Part shown: one piece after another, positions 26,839 through 38,864 of the stretch | Layout of the letters: every line of letters begins with the position of its first letter | How positions within the stretch are numbered: the stretch's first letter is position 1 | The notes under the pieces: model-generated | What the model was told of the DNA's origin: nothing | Databases searched by the model: none | The model's input: only the letters and a program-made list of their open reading frames with translations | From: a candidate division WWE3 bacterium | Lineage (GTDB): Bacteria; Patescibacteriota; WWE3; UBA101185; UBA10185 | NCBI GenBank assembly: GCA_012798115.1 | Contig: JAAZNV010000006.1 | Span: 19,232 to 83,231, forward strand | DNA: 64,000 nt | Direction of reading: 5' to 3' | Program-made: the position numbers and the translations under genes

Positions 26839-26866
26839 GCCACAGTTTTCCTGTGGCTTTTTATAA
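26839..26866 (+). terminator. Second terminator-like hairpin GCCACAG-ttttc-CTGTGGC followed by TTTTT, ending 5 nt before ATG 26871.
   Basis: Seen in the sequence; argues the real start is ATG 26871 rather than the track GTG at 26853. Confidence 0.35.
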
Positions 26867-26870
26867 ATTT

Positions 26871-29800
26871 ATGAAAAAAATAAAAATAAAGATCCACAGT
26901 GAAAAACTGTTTTCGTATGTTGCTATGTTTTCTATGGTTGCAAATGTGTTATCTCCATTTGCAGCTGTGCTTCCTTCCACTGCTTATGCAGAAGGTTCTT
27001 CTACTACAGAAACTACTCAGCAAGTAGAGGAAGAATCTAAAGAAGAAGTTAAACCTGAGGAAGAAGCCCCTGCAGAAGAACCAGAAGGAACGGTAGAACA
27101 AATAGAAGAGCAGAGTACTGAAAAAGAAAGCACCGAAGAAACCCAAGAACCTGTACAAGAAGAAACTGCTGAGCCAAAAGTTTCAGTAGAGTCTTCAAAT
27201 GAAATACCAGAAGGTAAATTTACAATAGATTCAGTAGAGAGTCCTATAACAGAACCTGAAGTCGTAGAAGTTATAACTCCTGCTGAACCGGTAGTTGAAG
27301 AACCAGCAATGGTAGAAGAACAGACAGGAGATATACTTCCTGATGGAGTCTCTGACTACAGACCAGAGATAGAGATTGAAGAAGGTGAAGCTACAGAGGT
27401 TCAGGAAGTTGTAGATCCTGTTTCAACAGAAACTAGTAGTACAGAGCCGGAAGTAGTTATTACAGAGCCTAGTGAAACTGAACCAGCAGTAACTGTTGAA
27501 CCAATTACTCCAACTGAAACTGGAGAAACTCCTAAAGAAGTAATTAAAGAATATGAGACGTTAGCAGATGGAGCAGAAGTAAAAGATAGTACAAAAGAAG
27601 ATTGGGATATTGATGGGGAAAAAGCTGAAACGAGGGAAGTAGTTAAACTTGGTATTAAATATATTTTCCCTATAGATAGTGAGGATAATGAAGTTAGTGT
27701 TACATTTACTAAACTTCCAAAATTAAGTGAAGATAAATCTACTTTAATAATAGAAAGAGTAAAAGTATCAGATCTTGATTTACCTGAAGATTTTAAAACT
27801 GATGCAGAATATGCATTTGATATTACTACTCCAGATATGAATGATGGAGAATTTGAATATAATTTAACTCTTCCTAAACCTGAAGGTGTGGACGCAGAAG
27901 TTGCATATATAGAAAAATCAATAAATGAGGCTAAAGATGAAGTTAAGAGTGAAGATGTAAAAAAGGTTGAAGAAGATAAAATTGATCAGGACGGCGGAAG
28001 CATAAAAGTAGAAAGTTTAGATCACTTGACCTTATTTATTCCTCTTGGTGGTGTAGTTCTTAGTGTATCTGGTAGTTTTGATGGCGCAACACAGGTTACT
28101 GTGGAACCTGGGACTGCTATTGAAGTTGATATTACAGTAGAGCGTAGTGATGGTTGGGATTGGTGGAGTAATGATGTTGAAAATGATTGGAAAGCTACTT
28201 CTTGGAAAATAAATGATGGCTCTTGGAATTGTGAGAATCACAGTGATCATACATGGGGTAATGGGACAGACACAGGTTCCTTCAATATTACAGCTCCTCT
28301 GGCAGAAGGTACGTACGACGTCAGTTTCAGGGCACATAGAAGTAATTCATGCGAAGACACTGGTGTTAGTAATACATTTACGTTAACAAATGGAATTAAG
28401 GTTGAAAGTTACTCTGCTCCAAGTCCAACACTTCATTATAATGTTAACGATGATTATGTTTTAACATCTGTTTCAGGAGTCTGGACAGATGTAAATGGTG
28501 GTAGTGAAGTAACTGGCGAGGGAACTAATGAAGTTAGGTGGGGACGTAGCGCAGAATATGGCAAGAAGAGTGGATTAAGATTTGATGGCAGTGATCAACA
28601 AAGTTTTAATGAAGGAAGTAGTTTTTATCTTGGAGCATTAACGCACTTTAACTGGCCAATTACCAATGCTTCACGTGGAGCCACTCTTAAGATCACTTTG
28701 CATTTTTCTAAACCTGGTATAAGTCCAGATCCAGATTTTAGTTATGACTTTAATATAGAAGAAACTTCTAACAGCTATGGTCATTGTCTTTCTTGGCAGC
28801 AAAGTTCAACTCCTTGTGATGACAAGATAACATTTCCATCTAGTTATGGTGAAAAGAGTTTTACAATAGGAGATAAACTTTATACTCTAAAAATATTAGG
28901 ATTTGTTAACTCCTATCCAGGAGGTTCTCCTGTTTCTCAGTTTATTACAGAAGAACAAAAGAATAACACAGCTTATTTAGTTGGTACCCTTTCATCTGTT
29001 CTTGTTCCTGCTCCTCAAATAACCCTAGTTGAGAAAGCAATTAATGGTAATGATGCTGATTCGTCTCCTGGAGATAGCTTATATGTTGGAGATGCAGTAA
29101 CATTTACCTATCAAGTTCAAAATACAGGTAATGTTGATTTAACTAATATAGTTATTCATGATAACGACTCAAGTTTATCTGTTACTTGTCCTTCTACGTC
29201 TTTAACTTCTGGGTCTTCTATGACCTGTACAGCAACAAGTACCGTTAAGCTAGGGAATTATCACAATACTGCTTATGTAACAGCAAAGCATGGTTCTCAG
29301 TCTTTAAGGAGTAGTGATGAAGAAGGATATTATGTTGGTGTAAATAGAATAATTTGTGGCGATGGTATAAAAGATGTTTCGGAAGCATGTGATAACGGTC
29401 CTGATAATGGAGATGTTTGTACGGCTCCTTATGATGGGGATTGTAATTATTGTGGTGTAAGTTGTGAGATTATAACAGTGAGAGGGCCCTACTGTGGAGA
29501 TGGAACTAAGAATGGGTCGTCAGAACAGTGTGATGGTCTAGACTTGGGTAATCTACCATCTTCAGATTTTTCTTGTACTAAAAAATGTGAACTTAATTTA
29601 ATTCAAGATAAAGTAACTATTTGTCATGCTGACGCTTCTGGACATAAACCATATACCATCAATAAGCCAAATAAATCTGCTGATGTAAATGGACACGATG
29701 GGCATAATGGACCTATTTGGTTCCTAGGTATAACAGGCGATTGGGGAGATATAATTCCTCCATTTTATTACGTTGGGGGTTATTACGTCGGAAAAAACTG

Positions 29801-32800
29801 GACGCCTGAAGGTGAAGCAATTTGGAGGAACGGTTGTGATGTTCCACCATACTGTGGTGATGGGGTTATAAATCAGCCTACAGAACAATGTGATGATGCT
29901 AACTCTGTAAATAATGATGGGTGTAGTGCCACGTGCCAGCTTGAAACTGGAACAATTACAATTATTAAGGATGCACAACCTGATGATAGTCAAACATTTA
30001 ACTTTACATATGAGAGTAATCCTTATGCTATCGGTAATTTCAGCTTAACAGATAATGGAGGTGGCAATGAAAAGATAAGTTTTGCGTCTATTCCAATAGG
30101 GTCATACTCTTGGACTGAGGATCTAGTTACAGATTGGCGCTTGGATAGCATTGCATGTGATGATAGCAATAGCGTTGGGGACTTATCAGCAAGAAGAGTT
30201 GATGTTGTGTTAGATGCTAATGAACATGTAACTTGCATCTTTACTAATGTGTTGAAGACTGGGACAATCTCAGGAGTCAAATTTGAAGACATAAACGGCA
30301 ATCGTGTCCAGGACAGTAATGAACATGGACTATCTGGTTGGACAATATATATTGATAGCAATAAGAATAATCAATTGGATGCTGGTGAACCTACTCAGGT
30401 TACTGATGTAAATGGAAACTTTGTTTTCAATGGCTTAACTCCTGGAAAATACTGGGTGAAGGAAATTAATCAAACTGGTTGGAGTCAAACAGTGCCAGCA
30501 GGGCTATACCAGGAAGTTGATCTGAAAGCTGATGAAAATGAGTCTATATATTTTGGAAATCAAAGGAATCCAGTAACTATAAATGCATATAAAGTAGTTT
30601 GTGATAATGAGTCTTACTTACCAAATTATGGTATTGGTGGACCAGACATTACTTCTACAACAGCACAAGATTGGGTAAGTAACAGCAATGGACATTGTAA
30701 GCTTGAACCTAACTGGAAGTTCCAGTGGAGTTTTGATGGTGTAGATAATCCTGGAGATAATATAACCAGTGAAGCAGGAACAGGTTGGAATACTTTTGGT
30801 CCAACTGATGGTGATGGTTTTGCACAAGTTAAGATCTATCAGCTTGATACGCCTAAGCTTTGGTTTAGAGAAGTACTTCAAGATGGTTATATTCCATTTA
30901 CATATGGAGCACACCCCGATAATTCAGATAATGTAAGTGCTGAGTTTTACTGCAATGATGATGTTTTTAACTACGATAACTGGGAATGGATAGATAACCC
31001 GCAATACGGAAATACTTACTACTGTGTTGCATGGAACACACTAAAGAAGGGATCTTTAGAAGTAACAAAGACTGTAAACTGGACAGAAATTATTCCTGAT
31101 GTGTCAAAGACTTTTGAAGTATGTATAACAGGTCCTTCTTACACATCTGGAAACTGCAAGACGATAGATTATGATGGTGGAACTTTAACGTGGAATGATT
31201 TATTGCTGGGTGATTACACAATAACAGAATCTGATCTTGGTGCACATTGGTCAGTTGTTGGTTCTGGATCTGTAGTTTCAGTATCTGATTCCTCTACGAC
31301 ACATCAAATAACTAATACATACATCCCATACTGTGGCGATGGAGTTAAGAATGGAGCAGAGCAATGTGATGGGAGAAGTGGAGTTAATGAAGATATGGAG
31401 TTTTGTACTAGCCAGTGTAAGCTAGTTCCAGTTTACGATGGTAATCATGAGTGTCCAAAAGGAACAATTGAAAAATATATTACCGGAATTACTTTAGGTA
31501 GCCAAAGTAGTTCTTTGCAAACACTTAATTTATCAGGTGGGAGATCTTATCTTCTAAAAGCTTTTGGAACTTACCAATATGGTAGTGGTTCTACAAGAAA
31601 AGCTGACCCAGCTTATGGATCTGAGGATAATTTTGCTACCTGGAGACCTGATATAGGAATTTGGGGTGTAAACAACAGAGGTGTTACTTCAATTCTAGGA
31701 AATCTAGGACGTGGGATGGGTGTAATTGAATGGGATAACGATAAAAATATTGATGAAGATCACATTTATGAAAAGTTAATTAAGCCTGAAAGTGACTTGG
31801 AAGCAAAGTTTGTTATTAGCGACTGGTACAGCAATTGGTATGGAAACAGCTGTGATAATCAAGGTTGTATGACTGATAATAATGGCTCGTTGAATGTAGA
31901 TTTGTATGAATGTGTTGAACCAAGTTCAATTCAAGGAAAGAAATTCAAAGATGTTAATGGCAATGGGATAAGAGACAGTGGTGATACGTACCTTGATGGT
32001 TGGACAGTAAATCTGTATCAACAAAAAGAAGGGTGGAGTTTAGTAAAAAGCATGATAACAGGCAATGATTTAACTGAAGCTGGATCAGTAGATCAAGGTC
32101 AATACAGATTTGTTAATCTTCTTCCTGGAAAGTATTTAGTTTGTGAGGAACTTAAGTCTGGTTGGGTGCAAACAGCACCAGTTGAAGGGACTTCTTATAA
32201 CGGTACTACTTGTTACGAAATAGACCTAGCAGCTGGAAAAAGTGAGGTTGGAAAAGTGTTTGGTAACTTTGAATTAGGAAAAGTTCAAGGTATGAAGTTT
32301 AATGATCTAGATGGGGATGGAAACTCACATGAAACTGGTGAAGAATATTTAAATGGTTGGACAATTAGATTATATAAAGATTGGGCAGAACCAGTTGAAG
32401 TTATAACTTCAAATACAGGAACTTTAGGGCAATATAAATTCGAGAATTTAAAGCCAGGAACTTATCAGGTTTGTGAGGTTTTACAACAAGGATGGGTACA
32501 GACATGGCCAAGTGCTGGGGATATTCCAGTTGGAGACAATGGAGTTACACACCCCAACTATGGAACTGCTGTTATTAATTCATCTAGTGCTTTAGATGAG
32601 GGTGCAAATTGCTGGCAAACAGTAGTTTCCGCATCGGGTCAATTCAATCAGCTGTTAAGGTTTGGGAACTCAAATCTTGGATCAATTCATGGTATGAAGT
32701 ATATAGATACTTCTGGTGATGGGAACTTTGATAGCGGAACCGATTGGGGTGCTTCTGGTTGGACAATAAATTTGTATAAACTAGTTAATAGCACGTATGT

Positions 32801-34994
32801 TCTTGCAAGTTCGGTATCAACTGATTCAAATGGATATTATTCATTTGCAAATCTCGAGCAAGGAACATACAAGTTGGAAGAAGTTCAACAATCTGGTTAT
32901 CAAATTATAAATCCATCTGCAGGAATTTATGAAGGAATTATTTTAAATCCTGGAGATAATTTAACGAATTATAACTTTGGTAATTTCCAGAACGGGAGTG
33001 TGTACGGTTGCAAGTACAACGACTTAGACGGTGATGGTGTTAGAAATAGAGAAATTGAACCTCAAATGGCAGGTGTAACAATGAACTTATATGATTCTTC
33101 ATGGAATTTAGTAGCATCAACAGCTACATCTGAAGGCTCTGGATATGGTAATAATTACTCGTTTAGTAATCTTCTTGGAAAGGGTACTTATTACGTTTGT
33201 GAAGTAATGTGGAAAGGTTGGGCACAAACTGAACCTAACGCGGAAAATGGTGTACTAAATGTATCACCAAATGCAGAAAATGAAGGTTCTTACTGCAGAA
33301 AGATAGAAAATAACTACTCTGGTGGTGGTTATGCAAGTCAAAGGTTTGGTAATGTTTTTGTAAATCCAAAACTTCAAATCTCAAAGAGTAATGATGCATC
33401 TTCTGCAAAGAAGATTGGAGATATTGTTACATTTACCATAAAGGTAAAAGTATTAGACTTCAAGCTTGATAATGTAACAGTTCTAGATCTTCTTCCAAAA
33501 GGATTCATATTCCAAGATGAGGATTGGGGAGTAACCTCCAGCAACCCATTGTTTAGTTTCACAGGAGATCCTCATTATGCCTCTCCTGGGACATGGAAGT
33601 TAGGGAGTCTACAGAAAGATGAAGAAGTTACTATTACATATGAGGCTAAAGTTGGATCAGATGTAGACCCTGGTGTTTATAAAGATTTGGCTTGGACTTC
33701 TGGGGATGATATTTTAGGTAGTAATGTCTTAGGCTTGGCTCAAGATGGTAAGGTAAATGATTATTTTGTAGGTACAGAAGTTGAAGTAACAAAGGACAAG
33801 GATTCTACTAAAGATACAGTTGATGTGAAAGAAACAGAAGAAGAGGAAGAGAAAGAAGAAGTGTTGGGTGCTTCTGATGTAAGATTACCTGCTACAGGAG
33901 CTAGCACAGCTATACTAGATGTAGTTTTAATAGCTGGTTTAGTGGGAGCCTTACTTATGATAATTGGAGGTATAGGAAAAATGTTAAAAGCTAAAAAGAA
34001 AAAGGATAAAAACTCAAGACTTAAAAAAGCGTTGTTAACAATGCTTATGTTAAGTTTTAGTTTGATACTTACTAGTAAAGTGTATGCAGAGTCAGACTCT
34101 AAACTAGTTGCTAGAATAGAAGATCCTAAATCTCCTGCTATATCATCGTTCAGCTTAAGCTTTGTTGTTCTTGATGCAAATGAAACACCAAGAAGTATTG
34201 AAGCTCAATGCTGGAAGAAAGGCCCGCTTGATTTAGACTTTGTTAAGTTTGCAGATCCTAGCGTTGATGGTGTGGGTGGAAACACAAATAATTGTTTGGT
34301 TGATAATTCAGTATTAACAAAATCAGGGACATATGTGTTTAAAGTTAAGGTTAAGGCTGATAGCGGTGATTGGCAAGATTCAATAAACACAGCCGCTGTT
34401 GTGTTTGATAATGATGGACCTGATAAACCGAAATATATAGAAAAAGATAAGAAGTCTGATTGCAAATATGAGATAACGCTAAAAACAGCAGATGATGATC
34501 AAACATCTTATATAGAAGTGTATAAAGATGATGATAAAGAAATGAATCTTCATTCTGGTAACTTGATTAAGACTAAGACAATAGGACCTGATGAAAAATA
34601 TGAATTTACGTATGAAGTTTATAGCAGTGATTGTGCAAAAACATGGTATTTTGCTGTAATTGCATTTGATGATTCTGGTAATGCATCGGATCCTAGAGCT
34701 GAAGAAGTAGTTACAAAGGTTACAGTAACAAAAACTACTAAAACGGAAGAAGTGCTTGGGGCGCTTGAAGTTCCTGGTGGAGCAAACCTTTCGCAGGAAG
34801 GTGAAGGAGCAAACAAGGAAGTACCTACTAAGACTAGTGAAGAATCAAAAGGTGCAGTTCTTGGAGAAAAAACTCAAGAACAAGGATTTGTGCTAAGGGT
34901 AGTTAAGTCTTTATGGTTTTGGTTAATAATTGTTCTTCTTGTGTATATCATTGTACGTGTTGTTAAAAAGAAACAAAATAAAAAGAAAAGGTAA
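26871..34994 (+). CDS. Giant modular cell-surface protein (about 2707 aa) with an internal LPATG sorting signal and an in-frame C-terminal module.
   Basis: Signal peptide, acidic E/T/P-rich spacer, at least three CGDG...CDDGN Myxococcus-type Cys-rich repeats, five SdrD-B/Cna-B-like repeats (GxKFxDxNGNG...GWTIxLY...PGxYxVxE), a DUF11-like repeat, then LPATG, TM and KAKKKKDK tail. Confidence 0.85.
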   Translation: MKKIKIKIHSEKLFSYVAMFSMVANVLSPFAAVLPSTAYAEGSSTTETTQQVEEESKEEVKPEEEAPAEEPEGTVEQIEEQSTEKESTEETQEPVQEETAEPKVSVESSNEIPEGKFTIDSVESPITEPEVVEVITPAEPVVEEPAMVEEQTGDILPDGVSDYRPEIEIEEGEATEVQEVVDPVSTETSSTEPEVVITEPSETEPAVTVEPITPTETGETPKEVIKEYETLADGAEVKDSTKEDWDIDGEKAETREVVKLGIKYIFPIDSEDNEVSVTFTKLPKLSEDKSTLIIERVKVSDLDLPEDFKTDAEYAFDITTPDMNDGEFEYNLTLPKPEGVDAEVAYIEKSINEAKDEVKSEDVKKVEEDKIDQDGGSIKVESLDHLTLFIPLGGVVLSVSGSFDGATQVTVEPGTAIEVDITVERSDGWDWWSNDVENDWKATSWKINDGSWNCENHSDHTWGNGTDTGSFNITAPLAEGTYDVSFRAHRSNSCEDTGVSNTFTLTNGIKVESYSAPSPTLHYNVNDDYVLTSVSGVWTDVNGGSEVTGEGTNEVRWGRSAEYGKKSGLRFDGSDQQSFNEGSSFYLGALTHFNWPITNASRGATLKITLHFSKPGISPDPDFSYDFNIEETSNSYGHCLSWQQSSTPCDDKITFPSSYGEKSFTIGDKLYTLKILGFVNSYPGGSPVSQFITEEQKNNTAYLVGTLSSVLVPAPQITLVEKAINGNDADSSPGDSLYVGDAVTFTYQVQNTGNVDLTNIVIHDNDSSLSVTCPSTSLTSGSSMTCTATSTVKLGNYHNTAYVTAKHGSQSLRSSDEEGYYVGVNRIICGDGIKDVSEACDNGPDNGDVCTAPYDGDCNYCGVSCEIITVRGPYCGDGTKNGSSEQCDGLDLGNLPSSDFSCTKKCELNLIQDKVTICHADASGHKPYTINKPNKSADVNGHDGHNGPIWFLGITGDWGDIIPPFYYVGGYYVGKNWTPEGEAIWRNGCDVPPYCGDGVINQPTEQCDDANSVNNDGCSATCQLETGTITIIKDAQPDDSQTFNFTYESNPYAIGNFSLTDNGGGNEKISFASIPIGSYSWTEDLVTDWRLDSIACDDSNSVGDLSARRVDVVLDANEHVTCIFTNVLKTGTISGVKFEDINGNRVQDSNEHGLSGWTIYIDSNKNNQLDAGEPTQVTDVNGNFVFNGLTPGKYWVKEINQTGWSQTVPAGLYQEVDLKADENESIYFGNQRNPVTINAYKVVCDNESYLPNYGIGGPDITSTTAQDWVSNSNGHCKLEPNWKFQWSFDGVDNPGDNITSEAGTGWNTFGPTDGDGFAQVKIYQLDTPKLWFREVLQDGYIPFTYGAHPDNSDNVSAEFYCNDDVFNYDNWEWIDNPQYGNTYYCVAWNTLKKGSLEVTKTVNWTEIIPDVSKTFEVCITGPSYTSGNCKTIDYDGGTLTWNDLLLGDYTITESDLGAHWSVVGSGSVVSVSDSSTTHQITNTYIPYCGDGVKNGAEQCDGRSGVNEDMEFCTSQCKLVPVYDGNHECPKGTIEKYITGITLGSQSSSLQTLNLSGGRSYLLKAFGTYQYGSGSTRKADPAYGSEDNFATWRPDIGIWGVNNRGVTSILGNLGRGMGVIEWDNDKNIDEDHIYEKLIKPESDLEAKFVISDWYSNWYGNSCDNQGCMTDNNGSLNVDLYECVEPSSIQGKKFKDVNGNGIRDSGDTYLDGWTVNLYQQKEGWSLVKSMITGNDLTEAGSVDQGQYRFVNLLPGKYLVCEELKSGWVQTAPVEGTSYNGTTCYEIDLAAGKSEVGKVFGNFELGKVQGMKFNDLDGDGNSHETGEEYLNGWTIRLYKDWAEPVEVITSNTGTLGQYKFENLKPGTYQVCEVLQQGWVQTWPSAGDIPVGDNGVTHPNYGTAVINSSSALDEGANCWQTVVSASGQFNQLLRFGNSNLGSIHGMKYIDTSGDGNFDSGTDWGASGWTINLYKLVNSTYVLASSVSTDSNGYYSFANLEQGTYKLEEVQQSGYQIINPSAGIYEGIILNPGDNLTNYNFGNFQNGSVYGCKYNDLDGDGVRNREIEPQMAGVTMNLYDSSWNLVASTATSEGSGYGNNYSFSNLLGKGTYYVCEVMWKGWAQTEPNAENGVLNVSPNAENEGSYCRKIENNYSGGGYASQRFGNVFVNPKLQISKSNDASSAKKIGDIVTFTIKVKVLDFKLDNVTVLDLLPKGFIFQDEDWGVTSSNPLFSFTGDPHYASPGTWKLGSLQKDEEVTITYEAKVGSDVDPGVYKDLAWTSGDDILGSNVLGLAQDGKVNDYFVGTEVEVTKDKDSTKDTVDVKETEEEEEKEEVLGASDVRLPATGASTAILDVVLIAGLVGALLMIIGGIGKMLKAKKKKDKNSRLKKALLTMLMLSFSLILTSKVYAESDSKLVARIEDPKSPAISSFSLSFVVLDANETPRSIEAQCWKKGPLDLDFVKFADPSVDGVGGNTNNCLVDNSVLTKSGTYVFKVKVKADSGDWQDSINTAAVVFDNDGPDKPKYIEKDKKSDCKYEITLKTADDDQTSYIEVYKDDDKEMNLHSGNLIKTKTIGPDEKYEFTYEVYSSDCAKTWYFAVIAFDDSGNASDPRAEEVVTKVTVTKTTKTEEVLGALEVPGGANLSQEGEGANKEVPTKTSEESKGAVLGEKTQEQGFVLRVVKSLWFWLIIVLLVYIIVRVVKKKQNKKKR
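30258..33240 (+). repeat. Region encoding five divergent SdrD-B-like (Cna-B type) beta-sandwich repeats, interleaved with other domains, inside the giant CDS.
   Basis: Repeating protein pattern (I/V)xG(V/M)K(F/Y)xDxNG(N/D)G...GL(S/D)GWT(I/V)xLY...GxYxFxNLxPGxYxVxE...GWxQTxP, seen five times. Confidence 0.6.
33885..33899 (+). other. LPATG sortase recognition motif codons (followed by a hydrophobic segment 33900-33980 and a basic tail), internal to the giant ORF.
   Basis: TTA CCT GCT ACA GGA read directly; downstream ASTAILDVVLIAGLVGALLMIIGGIG then KMLKAKKKKDK. Confidence 0.75.
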
Positions 34995-35628
34995 CTTAGA
35001 TCTGCTAGATACTTTAATTAGACTAGGGCTATTTTTAATAGCCCTAGCTTTGTTACTATTTGTTGTTATCTTTTGTCCTGTAGTTATTAAAGAAATAGAG
35101 TATAGATTATCAAAACCTAGTGAAAATATGGTTGTTCTAGCCCCTAAGAGCAGTTCTACAGGGGTTGCTAATGAGGGTAAAGAAATAGTACCAGTAGATA
35201 AGGATTTTAGTATTGTAGTGCCAAAAATCAAAGCAAACTCTAAGGTAATTCCTGATGTAGATCCTTATGACTCTAAAATATACCAAAAGGAATTAACTAA
35301 GGGAGTTGCTCATGCCAAAGGCAGTGTTTACCCTGGACAAGTAGGCAACTCTTTTTACTTTGCTCATTCTTCAGACAATTTTTATAATGCAAATAGATAT
35401 AATTCAGTTTTTTATCTCTTAAATAAATTGGAAGAAGGAGATTTGTTTTATTTTTCTTATAAAGAAGAATTATTCAAGTATAAGGTTGTTCAAACAAAGA
35501 TCGTTGAATCAGAATCAATCAATTACTTAAGTGGAAAAACAAATAGAAAACTAGCAACACTCATGACCTGTTGGCCAGCAGGTACTACACTTAAAAGATT
35601 GGTTGTGGTGGGAGAGCTAGTAGAATAA
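34930..35628 (+). CDS. Sortase (class A/E-like transpeptidase).
   Basis: N-terminal membrane anchor, catalytic His region (YFAHSSDNF), Cys motif (LATLMTCWPAG), conserved Arg (TLKRLVVVG). It overlaps the last 65 nt of the LPXTG substrate gene in another frame. Confidence 0.75.
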   Translation: MFFLCISLYVLLKRNKIKRKGNLDLLDTLIRLGLFLIALALLLFVVIFCPVVIKEIEYRLSKPSENMVVLAPKSSSTGVANEGKEIVPVDKDFSIVVPKIKANSKVIPDVDPYDSKIYQKELTKGVAHAKGSVYPGQVGNSFYFAHSSDNFYNANRYNSVFYLLNKLEEGDLFYFSYKEELFKYKVVQTKIVESESINYLSGKTNRKLATLMTCWPAGTTLKRLVVVGELVE

Positions 35629-35673: not shown

Positions 35674-36924
35674 ATGTCCAAAGTCTCAAATATTAGCTCA
35701 GACTCTTTTTTGCAAGATTCCATTGATTCAAACAGCTTAGACAATATGAACTTACAACCTCTTCAAGAGAGTACTTCTCAAGTAACAACTTTATATCCGG
35801 AGAAGAATATTATGAATGGAAAAGGAAATAAAAAAGCTTTAAGAATAATTAAAATAATATTTGCATTATTTCTTGTCTTGTTTGTTGCTTGGTTGATTCT
35901 TTCTAAGACGAGCAGTGGCAATATTGTGAGTCCATTTTCTAATAATTCAACTGTAAATAAAGAAACTAAAGTAATGTGTGATTTAACTGGAGAATACTTT
36001 ACTGAAGATCAAGCTGCTTACTGGAAAGATCAAAGACCTTTTGGAGTGATGATAAATAATCATGTTGATGCTAGACCTCAGTCTGGTTTAGTTTATGCAG
36101 ACTTGGTTTATGAGATAGTTGCTGAAGGAGGAATTACAAGGTTCTTAGCTTTCTTTCTTTCTAATACCCCAGAGAAAATTGGTCCTGTAAGAAGCACTCG
36201 TGAGTATTATCTTGTTTTGGTAAAAGAACTTAGTGATGCAATGATTATGCATATTGGATATTCCCCACAAGCTCTTATTGCAATAGATACGTGGCCAGTT
36301 AGAAGTTTATTTAGAGGTGGTTGTGAGTCTTTGCCTGGGTGTGAGTGGAGAGATAATCCAAGAAATGTAGCTTACGAGCATACTGCATTTGTTAATGGTG
36401 TAAAACTAAGAGAGCTTGGTGCAAGCTTAGGATGGGAAGGAAAGGGGGATATTAGACTTTGGAAGTTCAAGGATTCTGCTGATAAATATTCTCAAAGGCC
36501 AAGTGCAAGTAAAGTATCAATTGATTTTTGGACTAAAGGAGATTATTCAAGCATATTTACTTATAATCAGCAAAATAATTCTTATCTTAAATACACTGGT
36601 TATGATTCTAGTGACCAACCAATTCCAACTGTAGATCAAGAAACAAATGTACAAGTAGAAGTTAAAAATCTAATTGTCCAATTTGCAACGGAAACATCCA
36701 TAGATGGGGATGAAAAAGGAAGATTAGAGTATCAGCTTGTTGGGAGTGGAAAGGCCTTAGTATTTGTTGATGGAAAGGTAATTAATGCTACTTGGAATAA
36801 GTCAGGAAGAGATGATAGAACCATATTTTACGATACAGATGGAAATGAGGTAGAATTTAATAGAGGAAAATTTTGGATAGCAATAGTACCTGACAGGAAC
36901 GTTGATCAGGTAGTCTATAATTAA
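35674..36924 (+). CDS. DUF3048 (YerB-like) domain lipoprotein or membrane-anchored protein.
   Basis: DQRPFGVMINNHVDARPQSGLVYADLVYEIVAEGGITRFLAFF matches the DUF3048 N-terminal region. Confidence 0.6.
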   Translation: MSKVSNISSDSFLQDSIDSNSLDNMNLQPLQESTSQVTTLYPEKNIMNGKGNKKALRIIKIIFALFLVLFVAWLILSKTSSGNIVSPFSNNSTVNKETKVMCDLTGEYFTEDQAAYWKDQRPFGVMINNHVDARPQSGLVYADLVYEIVAEGGITRFLAFFLSNTPEKIGPVRSTREYYLVLVKELSDAMIMHIGYSPQALIAIDTWPVRSLFRGGCESLPGCEWRDNPRNVAYEHTAFVNGVKLRELGASLGWEGKGDIRLWKFKDSADKYSQRPSASKVSIDFWTKGDYSSIFTYNQQNNSYLKYTGYDSSDQPIPTVDQETNVQVEVKNLIVQFATETSIDGDEKGRLEYQLVGSGKALVFVDGKVINATWNKSGRDDRTIFYDTDGNEVEFNRGKFWIAIVPDRNVDQVVYN

Positions 36925-36943
36925 TCTGCCCCAAGGAATAAAT

Positions 36944-37531
36944 ATGTTAAATAAAATATTTGTGTCTGAAGTGAGAGTTAATATATTAAAATTGCTTCTT
37001 CTTAATCCAAAAAGGAGTTATCACGTAAGAGCTATTGTTAGACATGTTGGTGCAGAAATAAATGCAGTAAGAAGGGAGCTTGAAAATCTTTGTGAAATTG
37101 GTCTTGTTACCAAAAGACAAAGCTCTAATAGAATCTTCCATCAGATAAACACAAACCACCCTTTTTATTCCGACCTTCTTTCTCTCGTAGCTAAGGAGGA
37201 TGGCATAGGTGCTGCTATTGTTAAAAAGGCAAAATACATAGGAAGTATTGACTATGCAGTTTTATCTCTTGCTTTTTTGAGAGGTAGAAAATCTACAGCC
37301 TTAGATGTTGATTTATTTATAGTTGGAAATATTGATATTAAAGTTCTTGAAAGCATTGTAAGGGAAGAAGAAGATAAGACAGGAAGAGAAATAAATTATT
37401 CTGTGATGGATATGGATGAGTTTATGAACAGAAAAAGAACAAACGATCCTTTTATATATAGGGTTCTCACTCAAAGCAGGACAATGCTGATTGGTGATGA
37501 TGAGAAGTTTTGTGCAGTAATAAATGCTTAA
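36944..37531 (+). CDS. Winged-helix transcriptional regulator-like protein.
   Basis: N-terminal wHTH-like (VRVNILKLLLLNPKRSYHVRAIVRHVGAEINAVRRELENLCEIGLV). Confidence 0.4.
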   Translation: MLNKIFVSEVRVNILKLLLLNPKRSYHVRAIVRHVGAEINAVRRELENLCEIGLVTKRQSSNRIFHQINTNHPFYSDLLSLVAKEDGIGAAIVKKAKYIGSIDYAVLSLAFLRGRKSTALDVDLFIVGNIDIKVLESIVREEEDKTGREINYSVMDMDEFMNRKRTNDPFIYRVLTQSRTMLIGDDEKFCAVINA

Positions 37532-38864
37532 AAATGATTACTTTAAAGCAGTTTTAATTTCTTTTCTTTTTTCTTTATCTGTTCTTGTTGTTCTCCCTAA
37601 AATCCCAGTGTTTGTTAATAGTAAGCTGTATAAAGTAGACTCGTATGTTGGAGGATATCAAATTAAGATAGGATCGTTAAATCTTGATTTATCAAGATTT
37701 AGGAGTGGTGTAGATGTTCAAGGCGGGGATAAAATAATATTGAAAGTTGAAGACTTTGAACAACAAGATAAAGGTAAATACTTATCTTCTTTAGTTGAGG
37801 TGGTTATAAGAAGACTTCTTTTAGCTGGGTACTCTGATTTTAGCGTGGGGATAGAAAATGCAAATAACGGGGAAGTCTATATTCTTGTTCCAGAATTTTT
37901 AGATTCTTCTAAAATTAGTAGTTTAGTAAGTGGAAGTGGGGATATAGAAATTAAAAAGTTAAAGGATCCAAATAAATGGAGTGCTGAAGTAGCTTCTGAA
38001 TTAATTTCAGAACCTTCCGAATGGGTATCTACTGGTTTAACTAGACAAGATATTGAAGATTTAAGGTTAATAAGAAACACATCTGGACAGGATCAAATTC
38101 AGCTTATATTCACTCCCGAAGGAAAAGATAAGTTTAAAGAATTTCTTAAGGATATTTTAAATAAACCTTTTAGTATCAATGTAAACGGTTCGCCCCAACC
38201 TATTGCTGCACCAGTAGTGTCACAAAGCTTAGTTGACCAACCAAATTTAGATCCAGTTATTACAGGTGGGTTTGAAACAAATACTGTTAAAGATTATATA
38301 GTTCAAATGAAAAATCCAATCTTATCACATTTAAATGTTTCTGTTAATAAGGGTGTAAAAGCACAACTAGGAGATAACTTTTTAAATAAGTGTATCTTAT
38401 CAGTTCTTATTGGAATTTTAGTTTCATTTGTTTTTTTTACCTTAAAGTTCAAAAGTTATGGTGTAATAGGAAGTGTTTCTTTAATGCTGTCTTTAATACT
38501 TTTTTGTGCACTCTTTAAAGTTTTTTCTTTAGTAATTAATGTTTTTAGCATAGTTTCTTTTGTCATTTTTTATACTGTACTACTTGAATTTACTAATTTA
38601 GTTTTGTTAAATATCTCGTCTTCAAGTTCATCAAGTAAACCTAGAAATTTAGCTGTACGACAAGCTTTTAGTGTAAATATTGAGAGTTTGAAACTAATTT
38701 TAGTTTCTTTCCTTTCTTTTGCTTTTGTATTTTCTTTTTATGTTCACGACAATACTAAATATTTCTTATCAACTTTAGTACTTGGAGCCTTAGTTATAGT
38801 TTTTCATTATTTTTATTTATTAAAAACTTTTATTGAGTTATTTGGAGGAGAAGATGAAAAGTAG
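37524..38864 (+). CDS. SecD-like protein-export membrane protein (divergent).
   Basis: RSGVDVQGGDKIILKV resembles the SecD GLDLRGG periplasmic motif; C-terminal polytopic region with an odd SSSSSS run. Confidence 0.4.
   Translation: MLKNDYFKAVLISFLFSLSVLVVLPKIPVFVNSKLYKVDSYVGGYQIKIGSLNLDLSRFRSGVDVQGGDKIILKVEDFEQQDKGKYLSSLVEVVIRRLLLAGYSDFSVGIENANNGEVYILVPEFLDSSKISSLVSGSGDIEIKKLKDPNKWSAEVASELISEPSEWVSTGLTRQDIEDLRLIRNTSGQDQIQLIFTPEGKDKFKEFLKDILNKPFSINVNGSPQPIAAPVVSQSLVDQPNLDPVITGGFETNTVKDYIVQMKNPILSHLNVSVNKGVKAQLGDNFLNKCILSVLIGILVSFVFFTLKFKSYGVIGSVSLMLSLILFCALFKVFSLVINVFSIVSFVIFYTVLLEFTNLVLLNISSSSSSSKPRNLAVRQAFSVNIESLKLILVSFLSFAFVFSFYVHDNTKYFLSTLVLGALVIVFHYFYLLKTFIELFGGEDEK

Follow-up and report, generated by a model that had tools for sequence, protein, structure and literature searches.

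A conserved mid-polypeptide LPATG signal in a giant adhesin ORF of Patescibacteria suggests a sortase-processed polyprotein

Why does a giant surface protein of an ultrasmall candidate division WWE3 bacterium carry a sortase signal hundreds of residues before its C-terminus? The protein is encoded in a stretch of 64,000 nucleotides (assembly GCA_012798115.1, contig JAAZNV010000006.1, positions 19,232 to 83,231), which as a whole is called the window here and whose coordinates are used throughout; the giant ORF, its parts, and the sortase gene lie on its + strand. The giant open reading frame (ORF) at 26853..34994 starts with GTG 26853 (alternatively ATG 26871) and encodes an adhesin, an internal sorting signal, and a C-terminal partner in one chain of 2713 amino acids (aa). 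It is the sole long ORF spanning the region in the ORF list and has no in-frame stop codon before its end. Its LPATG motif (33885..33899; aa 2345-2349) is in frame, lies 365 residues from the C-terminus, and is followed by the first transmembrane (TM) segment, ASTAILDVVLIAGLVGALLMIIGGIGKML (TM1; 33900..33986), and a positively charged tail, KAKKKKDK. The LPXTG motif, the hydrophobic segment, and the positive tail of a sorting signal are present, whereas the location at the extreme C-terminus is not: about 325 in-frame residues follow the charged tail, and this internal placement is conserved in relatives. The initial annotation had pointed out that the frame runs on past the tail into a signal-peptide-like segment with a Met codon at 34041 and some 300 further residues, and this was confirmed in every part. 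I propose that the giant ORF probably encodes a polyprotein that is genuine and conserved, belongs to a three-part module of adhesin, partner, and sortase in Patescibacteria, and would be cut by the sortase between the T and the G of LPATG.

What follows the internal signal? The loop after TM1, KAKKKKDKNSRLKK (33987..34028), is basic and predicted to be cytoplasmic; it looks like an old sorting-signal tail (KAKKKKDK) joined to the n-region of an old signal peptide (NSRLKK). TM2, ALLTMLMLSFSLILTSKVYA (34029..34088), is the signal-peptide-like segment with the in-frame Met, and ends in a predicted signal peptidase I site, VYA/ESD, where cleavage would fall after the Ala codon 34086-34088 and before 34089. 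About 210 residues of folded sequence lie between this site and a conserved motif, EEVLGALEVPGGAN (34746..34787). The chain ends with TM3, LWFWLIIVLLVYIIVRVV, and a basic tail, KKKQNKKKR (together 34911..34991), which are proposed to anchor the partner permanently; the WFW and the basic tail are conserved, and the stop codon comes directly after the tail.

Is the fused arrangement common? A scan of genomes, one per species, yielded five loci (two from Saccharibacteria, one from WWE3, and two from the 'Patescibacteria group'). In all five, LPATG, TM1, a short basic loop, a TM2 ending in small-x-Ala, the conserved domain, and TM3 are encoded in one ORF, which is followed by a sortase gene. The loops of loci L004-L007 have 3-6 residues (KAKG, KRKK, KKRKE, and RNKK) and no Met. 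When a HMMER profile of the C-terminal part was searched against 1.84 billion representatives (clusters at 50% identity), the partner family was found to have 691 members at E <= 1e-3 and 307 at E <= 1e-30. Among the best 150 of the 691, there are 111 in which the C-terminal part is immediately preceded by LPXTG and TM1 within one protein and which are called fused here, while approximately 27 are proteins of about 320 aa starting with Met and a signal peptide, and approximately 10 are N-terminally truncated. The loops of the 111 fused relatives are 2-44 aa in length (median 9) with a median net charge of +4, and the charge is zero or negative in one only, as expected for the cytoplasmic loop of a hairpin under the positive-inside rule.

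Are there relatives in which the two halves are separate genes? Some 'stand-alone' proteins in the database are merely cut by contig ends (P0141, P0002, P0013, and P0019). P0001 and P0002 were rejected as stand-alone forms because they are cut in this way and are silent on the junction, and P0013 and P0019 were rejected because they start inside TM1. P0141, the stand-alone form nearest to a fused one, is ambiguous with a start 2 nucleotides (nt) from a contig end. On the other hand, P0079 (locus L008) and P0049 (locus L009) are encoded by genes that are truly separate on the DNA. Their ATG codons overlap the stop of the upstream gene by 8-14 nt, and the upstream genes end with GEVLGASISLPSTG-TM-RRKHD or LPATG-TM-KKKRYERK before the stop; in L009, the sortase gene comes after the partner gene. 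A metagenome scan seeded with stand-alone members, for which a clade-specific alignment was used, yielded 80 loci: 39 have the split form and 28 the fused form, 9 are truncated at the end of a contig, and 4 were unclear at first. In a typical split locus, the upstream gene ends with LPXTG-TM-RRKYA and a stop, and the ATG of the partner gene overlaps it from 8 nt upstream; the partner consists of Met, a signal peptide, and the domain.

A crude neighbour-joining tree of the domain has the fused forms intermixed with the split ones, and the state changes at least 15 times along it, a count whose exact value is not to be trusted; the close pair P0141/P0138 is ambiguous due to the contig end. The fused form is the commoner and conserved state of this family and not a one-off loss of a stop codon. 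The initial annotation had considered a fusion of two tandem surface-protein genes by loss of a stop, and had named homologues with uniformly separate genes as a refutation of its observation. The fusion is supported as evolutionary history by the relatives existing as two overlapping genes, whereas the one-off origin does not agree with the commonness and conservation of the fused state, and the uniform separation is contradicted by the finding of both fused and split loci. One of the four unclear loci, L054, turned out to be split; its upstream gene ends with VLGAS-IAATG-TM-KKKENK and a stop (around 1100-1190). This gene has a variant IAATG in place of LPATG, yet a normal sortase gene lies downstream.

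Is the junction itself genuine? An independent assembly, Logan SRR25435861, contains a 30.8-kb contig (locus L091) with the same gene order as the window. Its protein P0003 is 98% identical to the giant protein, with 51 substitutions and 7 gap positions, and the junction DNA is identical to that of the window. In another Patescibacteria species (locus L003), which shares 69% aa identity in the C-terminal part, the junction has many substitutions and is free of indels; the first gap is the deletion of a single codon past the VYA site. A stop codon or a frameshift at the junction, which the initial annotation had named as a sign of an assembly error, was found in neither assembly. Because of the identical junction in L091, the indel-free one in L003, and the fused layout in 111 of the 150 family representatives, the read-through is neither a chance event nor an assembly error.

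The conservation of the processing sites was assessed with an alignment of 64 sequences, 39 fused and 25 stand-alone. The L, P, T, and G of LPXTG are invariant in the 39 fused members. The VLGA ahead of LPXTG has its L and G in 38 of the 39, and the motif is also found in nearly all upstream genes of the split form. At the signal-peptidase-like site, Ala at position -1 is conserved in 37/39 fused and 24/25 stand-alone members, and Ala or Val at position -3 in 29/39 and 20/25, respectively. The mature end past the site reads (L/V)xVR(I/L)E(E/Q)P in both forms. Thus, the sortase and signal peptidase sites are under equal constraint whether the halves are fused or not. In regard to the partner domains, four Cys residues, two per domain, are invariant or nearly so, which fits an extracytoplasmic location. 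The prolines P209 and P212 do not vary; the Lys of PKYIEK, K217 (aa 2531), is conserved in 34/39 fused and 25/25 stand-alone members and is Val in some members.

The C-terminal region had also been described as a degenerate copy of the sorting module, and this claim stands in part. In its favor, xA[IL]xVxGG is found after the second domain almost throughout the family, relatives show xA[IL]PVxGG, and 9-11 of about 140 members have IPV[TS]G at this place; it is plausible that the post-domain motif, EEVLGALEVPGGAN in the window, is a relic of an ancestral sorting signal of the LPXTG type. Within the giant protein, on the other hand, the second module shares with the first only EEVLGAxxV (7/9 aa, pairwise E = 0.028) besides the generic TM helix and basic tail. 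A recent DNA duplication of the module was rejected, as the DNA matches over only 26 nt (73% identity) and the peptide match is limited to EEVLGA. There are three copies of VLG[AE] within the last 380 aa (33855-33872, 34746-34763, and 34851-34868) and none in the first 2,340 aa. Of these copies, the first is the EEVLGA located 4 residues before LPATG (context EEVLGASDVR), which is conserved in relatives. The third, GAVLGE, lies in an acidic Gly-rich linker ahead of TM3, and [GE]xVLGE is found at this place almost everywhere in the family. When other LPXTG proteins were sought in the fetched loci to see how general VLGA is, all those found belonged to the adhesin-partner-sortase module. LPETS- or LPTTS-like strings are present in the linker of some partners (L032, 3887-4945; L035, 1-2754), a short way ahead of VLG and TM3, and may likewise be remnants of sorting motifs.

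The third part of the module is the sortase gene, whose longest ORF is at 34930..35628 (start codon TTG 34930; or GTG 34957 by homology to the gene call in L091) and which matches Pfam Sortase at 3e-20. Its first 38 nt (from GTG 34957) to 65 nt (from TTG 34930) are shared with the 3′ end of the giant ORF, and the same overlap in L003, L004, and L006 suggests translational coupling. The protein has an N-terminal TM helix as its sole anchor and a TLMTC catalytic motif. Its best NCBIfam sortase match is class C (NF033745, 65.8 bits against a cut-off of 160), and its nearest solved relatives also belong to class C (best Protein Data Bank (PDB) E = 3e-10). In all loci that extend far enough downstream, including a few that the motif test had missed, the partner is followed by a homologue of the window's sortase with about 50% identity.

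What is the partner? An AlphaFold2 model (m81ff774f4cdd) was made with the 64-sequence alignment, and its mean pLDDT (predicted local distance difference test) of 77 compares with 56 for the model from a 3-sequence alignment that it replaced. It has helices at 38-65 (TM1), 74-93 (TM2), and 365-398 (TM3, 373-398 of which is taken as the anchor segment), and a disordered region at 308-363. Between them, two beta-sandwiches (104-204 and 214-302) are predicted with pLDDT above 90; each is seven-stranded and matches fibronectin type III (FnIII, FN3) structures, so that the predicted fold is a tandem of FnIII domains. In the window, FN3-like domain 1, with two invariant Cys, is encoded at 34104..34406. 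Domain 2, CKYE...KTADD...YFAVIAFDDSGNAS (34434..34700), was assigned by structure search and a weak Pfam match (Y_Y_Y), and has two nearly invariant Cys. The loop between the domains, PDKPKYIEK (34419..34445), contains the invariant prolines and the nearly invariant Lys (nt 34443-34445). No named family was found above threshold for the partner in Pfam or NCBIfam (sub-threshold, Y_Y_Y 19 bits and MXAN_2561 18 bits), and no PDB sequence matched it at E <= 1. Relatives are listed publicly as 'hypothetical', 'Cna B domain protein', 'LPXTG-motif cell wall-anchored protein', and 'TIGR01451 repeat protein', of which the non-hypothetical ones describe the adhesin half.

How may such a chain be processed? 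The N-terminal signal peptide would export the adhesin of about 2,300 aa through the Sec pathway, and TM1 of the sorting signal would act as a stop-transfer sequence, leaving the short basic loop in the cytoplasm. TM2 would then serve as an internal signal peptide that re-exports the two FN3-like domains, probably disulfide-bonded, until TM3 and its basic tail stop the transfer again and anchor the partner in the membrane. The sortase from the overlapping downstream gene would cut between LPAT and G (in the peptide EEVLGASDVRLPATGAS) and hand the adhesin over to an acceptor, which is presumably the cell wall. A cut by signal peptidase I past the conserved Ala at the end of TM2 (VYA/E) is also probable. 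The products would be the same two mature proteins as those from split, translationally coupled genes, plus a TM1-loop-TM2 hairpin peptide of about 60 residues. This polyprotein reading is favored because fused and split forms interchange, both sites are conserved undiminished in the fused members, and the sortase linkage is invariable. Of the mechanisms put forward in the initial annotation, a single chain that sortase cuts to leave a membrane-retained C-terminal fragment is, from the invariant LPTG and the ever-adjacent sortase gene, the best supported. Fusion or an 8-nt overlap would give an adhesin-to-partner ratio of about 1:1 and keep the module together, and therefore a stoichiometric, membrane-proximal partner (anchor, stalk, or acceptor) is favored over a catalytic helper.

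Several points weigh against this reading. I infer the two cuts and the topology, as well as whatever role the partner may have, from sequence and predicted topology, and the cell wall as the acceptor of the adhesin is a presumption. The sortase scores below every curated class cut-off of NCBIfam, and no sortase of Patescibacteria is known to have been characterized. In the AlphaFold2 model, a contact of the LPATG segment with the FN3 domains is not confident (pLDDT <50 for residues 1-35). The counts of fused and stand-alone forms in the protein library are approximate since some 'stand-alone' entries are cut by contig ends, and the 39:28 ratio of split to fused loci, which is free of this problem, is biased toward a split-rich clade because of the clade-specific alignment used for the scan.

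Could the FN3 partner itself be the acceptor? As an extension of the polyprotein reading, the sortase may join the Thr of LPAT covalently to the Lys of GPDKPKYIEK or to the N-terminus made by signal peptidase. The set of an adhesin, a small two-domain protein, and a sortase resembles a minimal pilus island, and the best solved and NCBIfam matches of the sortase are to class C, the pilus-polymerizing class; however, its class C score is far from reaching the cut-off, and its sole anchor is N-terminal. The candidate Lys is strongly conserved beside the invariant prolines, but it is replaced by Val in some members, and the partner has an FnIII fold without the YPKN motif of pilins. The 1:1 coupling by fusion or overlap would suit a donor and its acceptor, and some partners have IPV[TS]G after the domains. 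Nevertheless, it would seem superfluous to cut a chain and then join its own parts again, except where the bond is formed in trans. This extension is considered unlikely on balance. If it is true, the module would form a pilus-like adhesin-anchor of two subunits, which TM3 would hold in the membrane; where the partner reads IPVTG, it would be held in the wall. Donor and acceptor would be delivered together, sortase substrates would be attached otherwise than to the wall, and the recurring VLG[AE] would be part of an extended recognition code of the sortase.

Alternatively, the LPATG may be disused, and the product may be an uncut membrane protein with three TM helices bearing a giant ectodomain and an FN3 ectodomain. 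A sorting signal away from the C-terminus is atypical, and its cleavage in this phylum is a matter of inference. However, the strict retention of L, P, T, and G in the fused members together with the upstream VLGA, the sortase gene that is always adjacent and overlapping, and the retained Ala at position -1 of the signal peptidase site all make a disused signal quite improbable. In addition, close relatives switch between the fused and split states, so the halves must work when separate.

It was also suggested in the initial annotation that translation starts anew at ATG 34041. According to this alternative, initiation there or nearby yields a separate partner, and the read-through product is incidental. 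The ATG is in frame, the loop of L003, MKKALLSMLVLGFGLILTSKVYA, is a complete signal peptide, and a Met is still present in the loop of 33 of the 111 fused relatives. The other 78 have none, and where L003 retains MKKALL, the window has RLKKALL, the Met being Leu. Moreover, a protein started at 34041 would be without a basic n-region, and there is no upstream stop, so the ribosomes translating the adhesin would continue regardless. No Shine-Dalgarno sequence was recognizable within 25 nt upstream of the gene starts inspected in the window (26871, 35674, 36944, 37524, 39445, and 41083), and arguments from ribosome-binding sites are therefore unusable here: its absence before an internal start is uninformative. 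Taken together, internal initiation is very doubtful as the source of the partner.

Finally, a stop codon or frameshift in 33990-34030 may have been lost, wrongly joining two genes: the junction is A-rich (AAAAAGAAAAAGGATAAAAAC), and since the overlap in the split relatives is in another frame and no longer than about 8 nt, one indel could fuse them. This artefact is effectively refuted by the same junction DNA in L091 despite the substitutions elsewhere, the substitutions without an indel in L003, the fused layout in diverse representatives and in all five genome loci, and the many loops of 3-6 aa, which have no space for a separate start.

The adhesin half of the proposed polyprotein begins with a signal peptide, ...AAVLPSTAYA/EGSS (26853..26990), whose cleavage site is predicted. 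Within the upstream 2,340 residues, Pfam and NCBIfam matches are of the adhesin type, namely choice_anch_K, DUF7507, Cys-rich DUF4215/myxo_disulf_rpt repeats, five SdrD_B domains, SpaA, and DUF11. The last domain before the sorting signal is of the DUF11 type (33372..33701; Pfam DUF11, aa 2174-2283). It is kept in all relatives, and its YASPGxW...YKDLAW...FVGT is conserved in L003-L007 and L009, while the remaining length of the adhesin varies. The choice-of-anchor K domain (28467-29018; aa 539-722) also matches the THxN PEP-CTERM model with 92 bits against a cut-off of 85; it is named after another sorting system and is found here inside an LPXTG protein. In the Saccharibacteria locus L005 (5137-8397 and 8147-10966), an ORF of 1086 aa in another frame runs into the 5′ end of the fused ORF, which has 939 aa; this may be a frameshift within the adhesin part or two genes. 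Past the sortase gene, the window has genes for a DUF3048 protein (416 aa), a 195-aa protein, and a polytopic membrane protein of about 446 aa (35674-38864 and beyond). The same order was found in the 98%-identical strain of L091 and, by ORF sizes, in L004 and L006. Locus L001 has only the sortase gene and an ORF of about 403 aa before the contig end.

A life attached to other cells is assumed for Patescibacteria, and the anchoring of their giant adhesins is understood only in small part. The module described here is widespread, with hundreds of sequence clusters from Saccharibacteria, WWE3, and other groups, and its partner domain is nameless in Pfam, NCBIfam, PDB, and the source annotations. 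Its conservation suggests that a sorting signal may work in the middle of a polypeptide and be kept there by selection. The module also shows that a pair of coupled genes and a single polyprotein are freely exchanged for each other in evolution. Caution may be needed with annotation pipelines that expect a C-terminal LPXTG or that 'repair' such ORFs as fused-gene errors.

How does the module compare with known systems? Like the canonical LPXTG signal of Gram-positive bacteria, it has a conserved LPATG, a hydrophobic segment, a Lys-rich tail, and an adjacent sortase with TLMTC. Unlike the canonical one, the signal is internal, and the frame continues past it with another export segment, two folded domains, and a third TM helix; moreover, none of the curated classes fits the sortase, and the host is a Patescibacterium.

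Sortase-assembled pili include minimal assemblies of a tip adhesin and a base pilin built by a class C sortase. The present module likewise combines, in one operon, a large LPXTG adhesin, a small secreted two-domain protein with a hydrophobic C-terminal anchor, and a class-C-like sortase. However, the fold of the partner is FnIII and not CnaA/CnaB, and the partner lacks YPKN and, in the window, LPXTG, and is often in one polypeptide with the adhesin. No pilin was among the top structural hits listed for the partner, whose nearly invariant Lys is in the Pro-rich loop PKYIEK of an FnIII fold.

Another FnIII pair is known from PamR (WP_260763282.1) of the Pam pilus of Ca. Mycosynbacter amalyticus, a Patescibacterium; PamR, according to the preprint, is RbmA-like, has a C-terminal TM helix, and was proposed to tether the filament to the membrane (bioRxiv 10.64898/2026.03.03.709456). 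The FnIII pair with a C-terminal TM helix is a structural parallel by that description only. PamR belongs to the operon of a sortase-independent, donor-strand-exchange pilus, and the parts of the preprint consulted describe neither a role of a sortase nor an LPXTG partner (bioRxiv 10.64898/2026.03.03.709456). A fused adhesin-partner architecture was not found described in the literature on internal LPXTG motifs, sortase polyproteins, or sortases in the Candidate Phyla Radiation (CPR, as Patescibacteria were formerly called), Saccharibacteria, and Microgenomates.

The closest precedent is the LPXTG-TM-TM arrangement of the streptococcal Zmp family (IgA1 protease along with ZmpB, ZmpC, and ZmpD). 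These proteins have LPXTG, two hydrophobic segments, and a second signal peptidase site, and it was proposed that the second helix of the TM hairpin is a second signal peptide by which the downstream part is re-exported (PMC3518915). The non-terminal LPXTG and the two predicted TM helices are shared, as is the second signal peptidase site, which in the present module is predicted and has a conserved Ala at position -1. In the Zmp proteins, however, LPXTG lies near the N-terminus with a large zinc metalloprotease domain downstream, while the LPATG of the giant protein is at aa 2345 of 2713 with a small FN3 pair downstream. No metalloprotease or other protease family was matched in the giant protein by Pfam or NCBIfam, and the two have no protein family in common. 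The present module further differs in its extra C-terminal TM anchor, its dedicated sortase, the interchange of fused and split forms, and its occurrence in another phylum. Thus placed, the adhesin-partner-sortase module is a variant of the sortase/LPXTG system and not a new kind of system.

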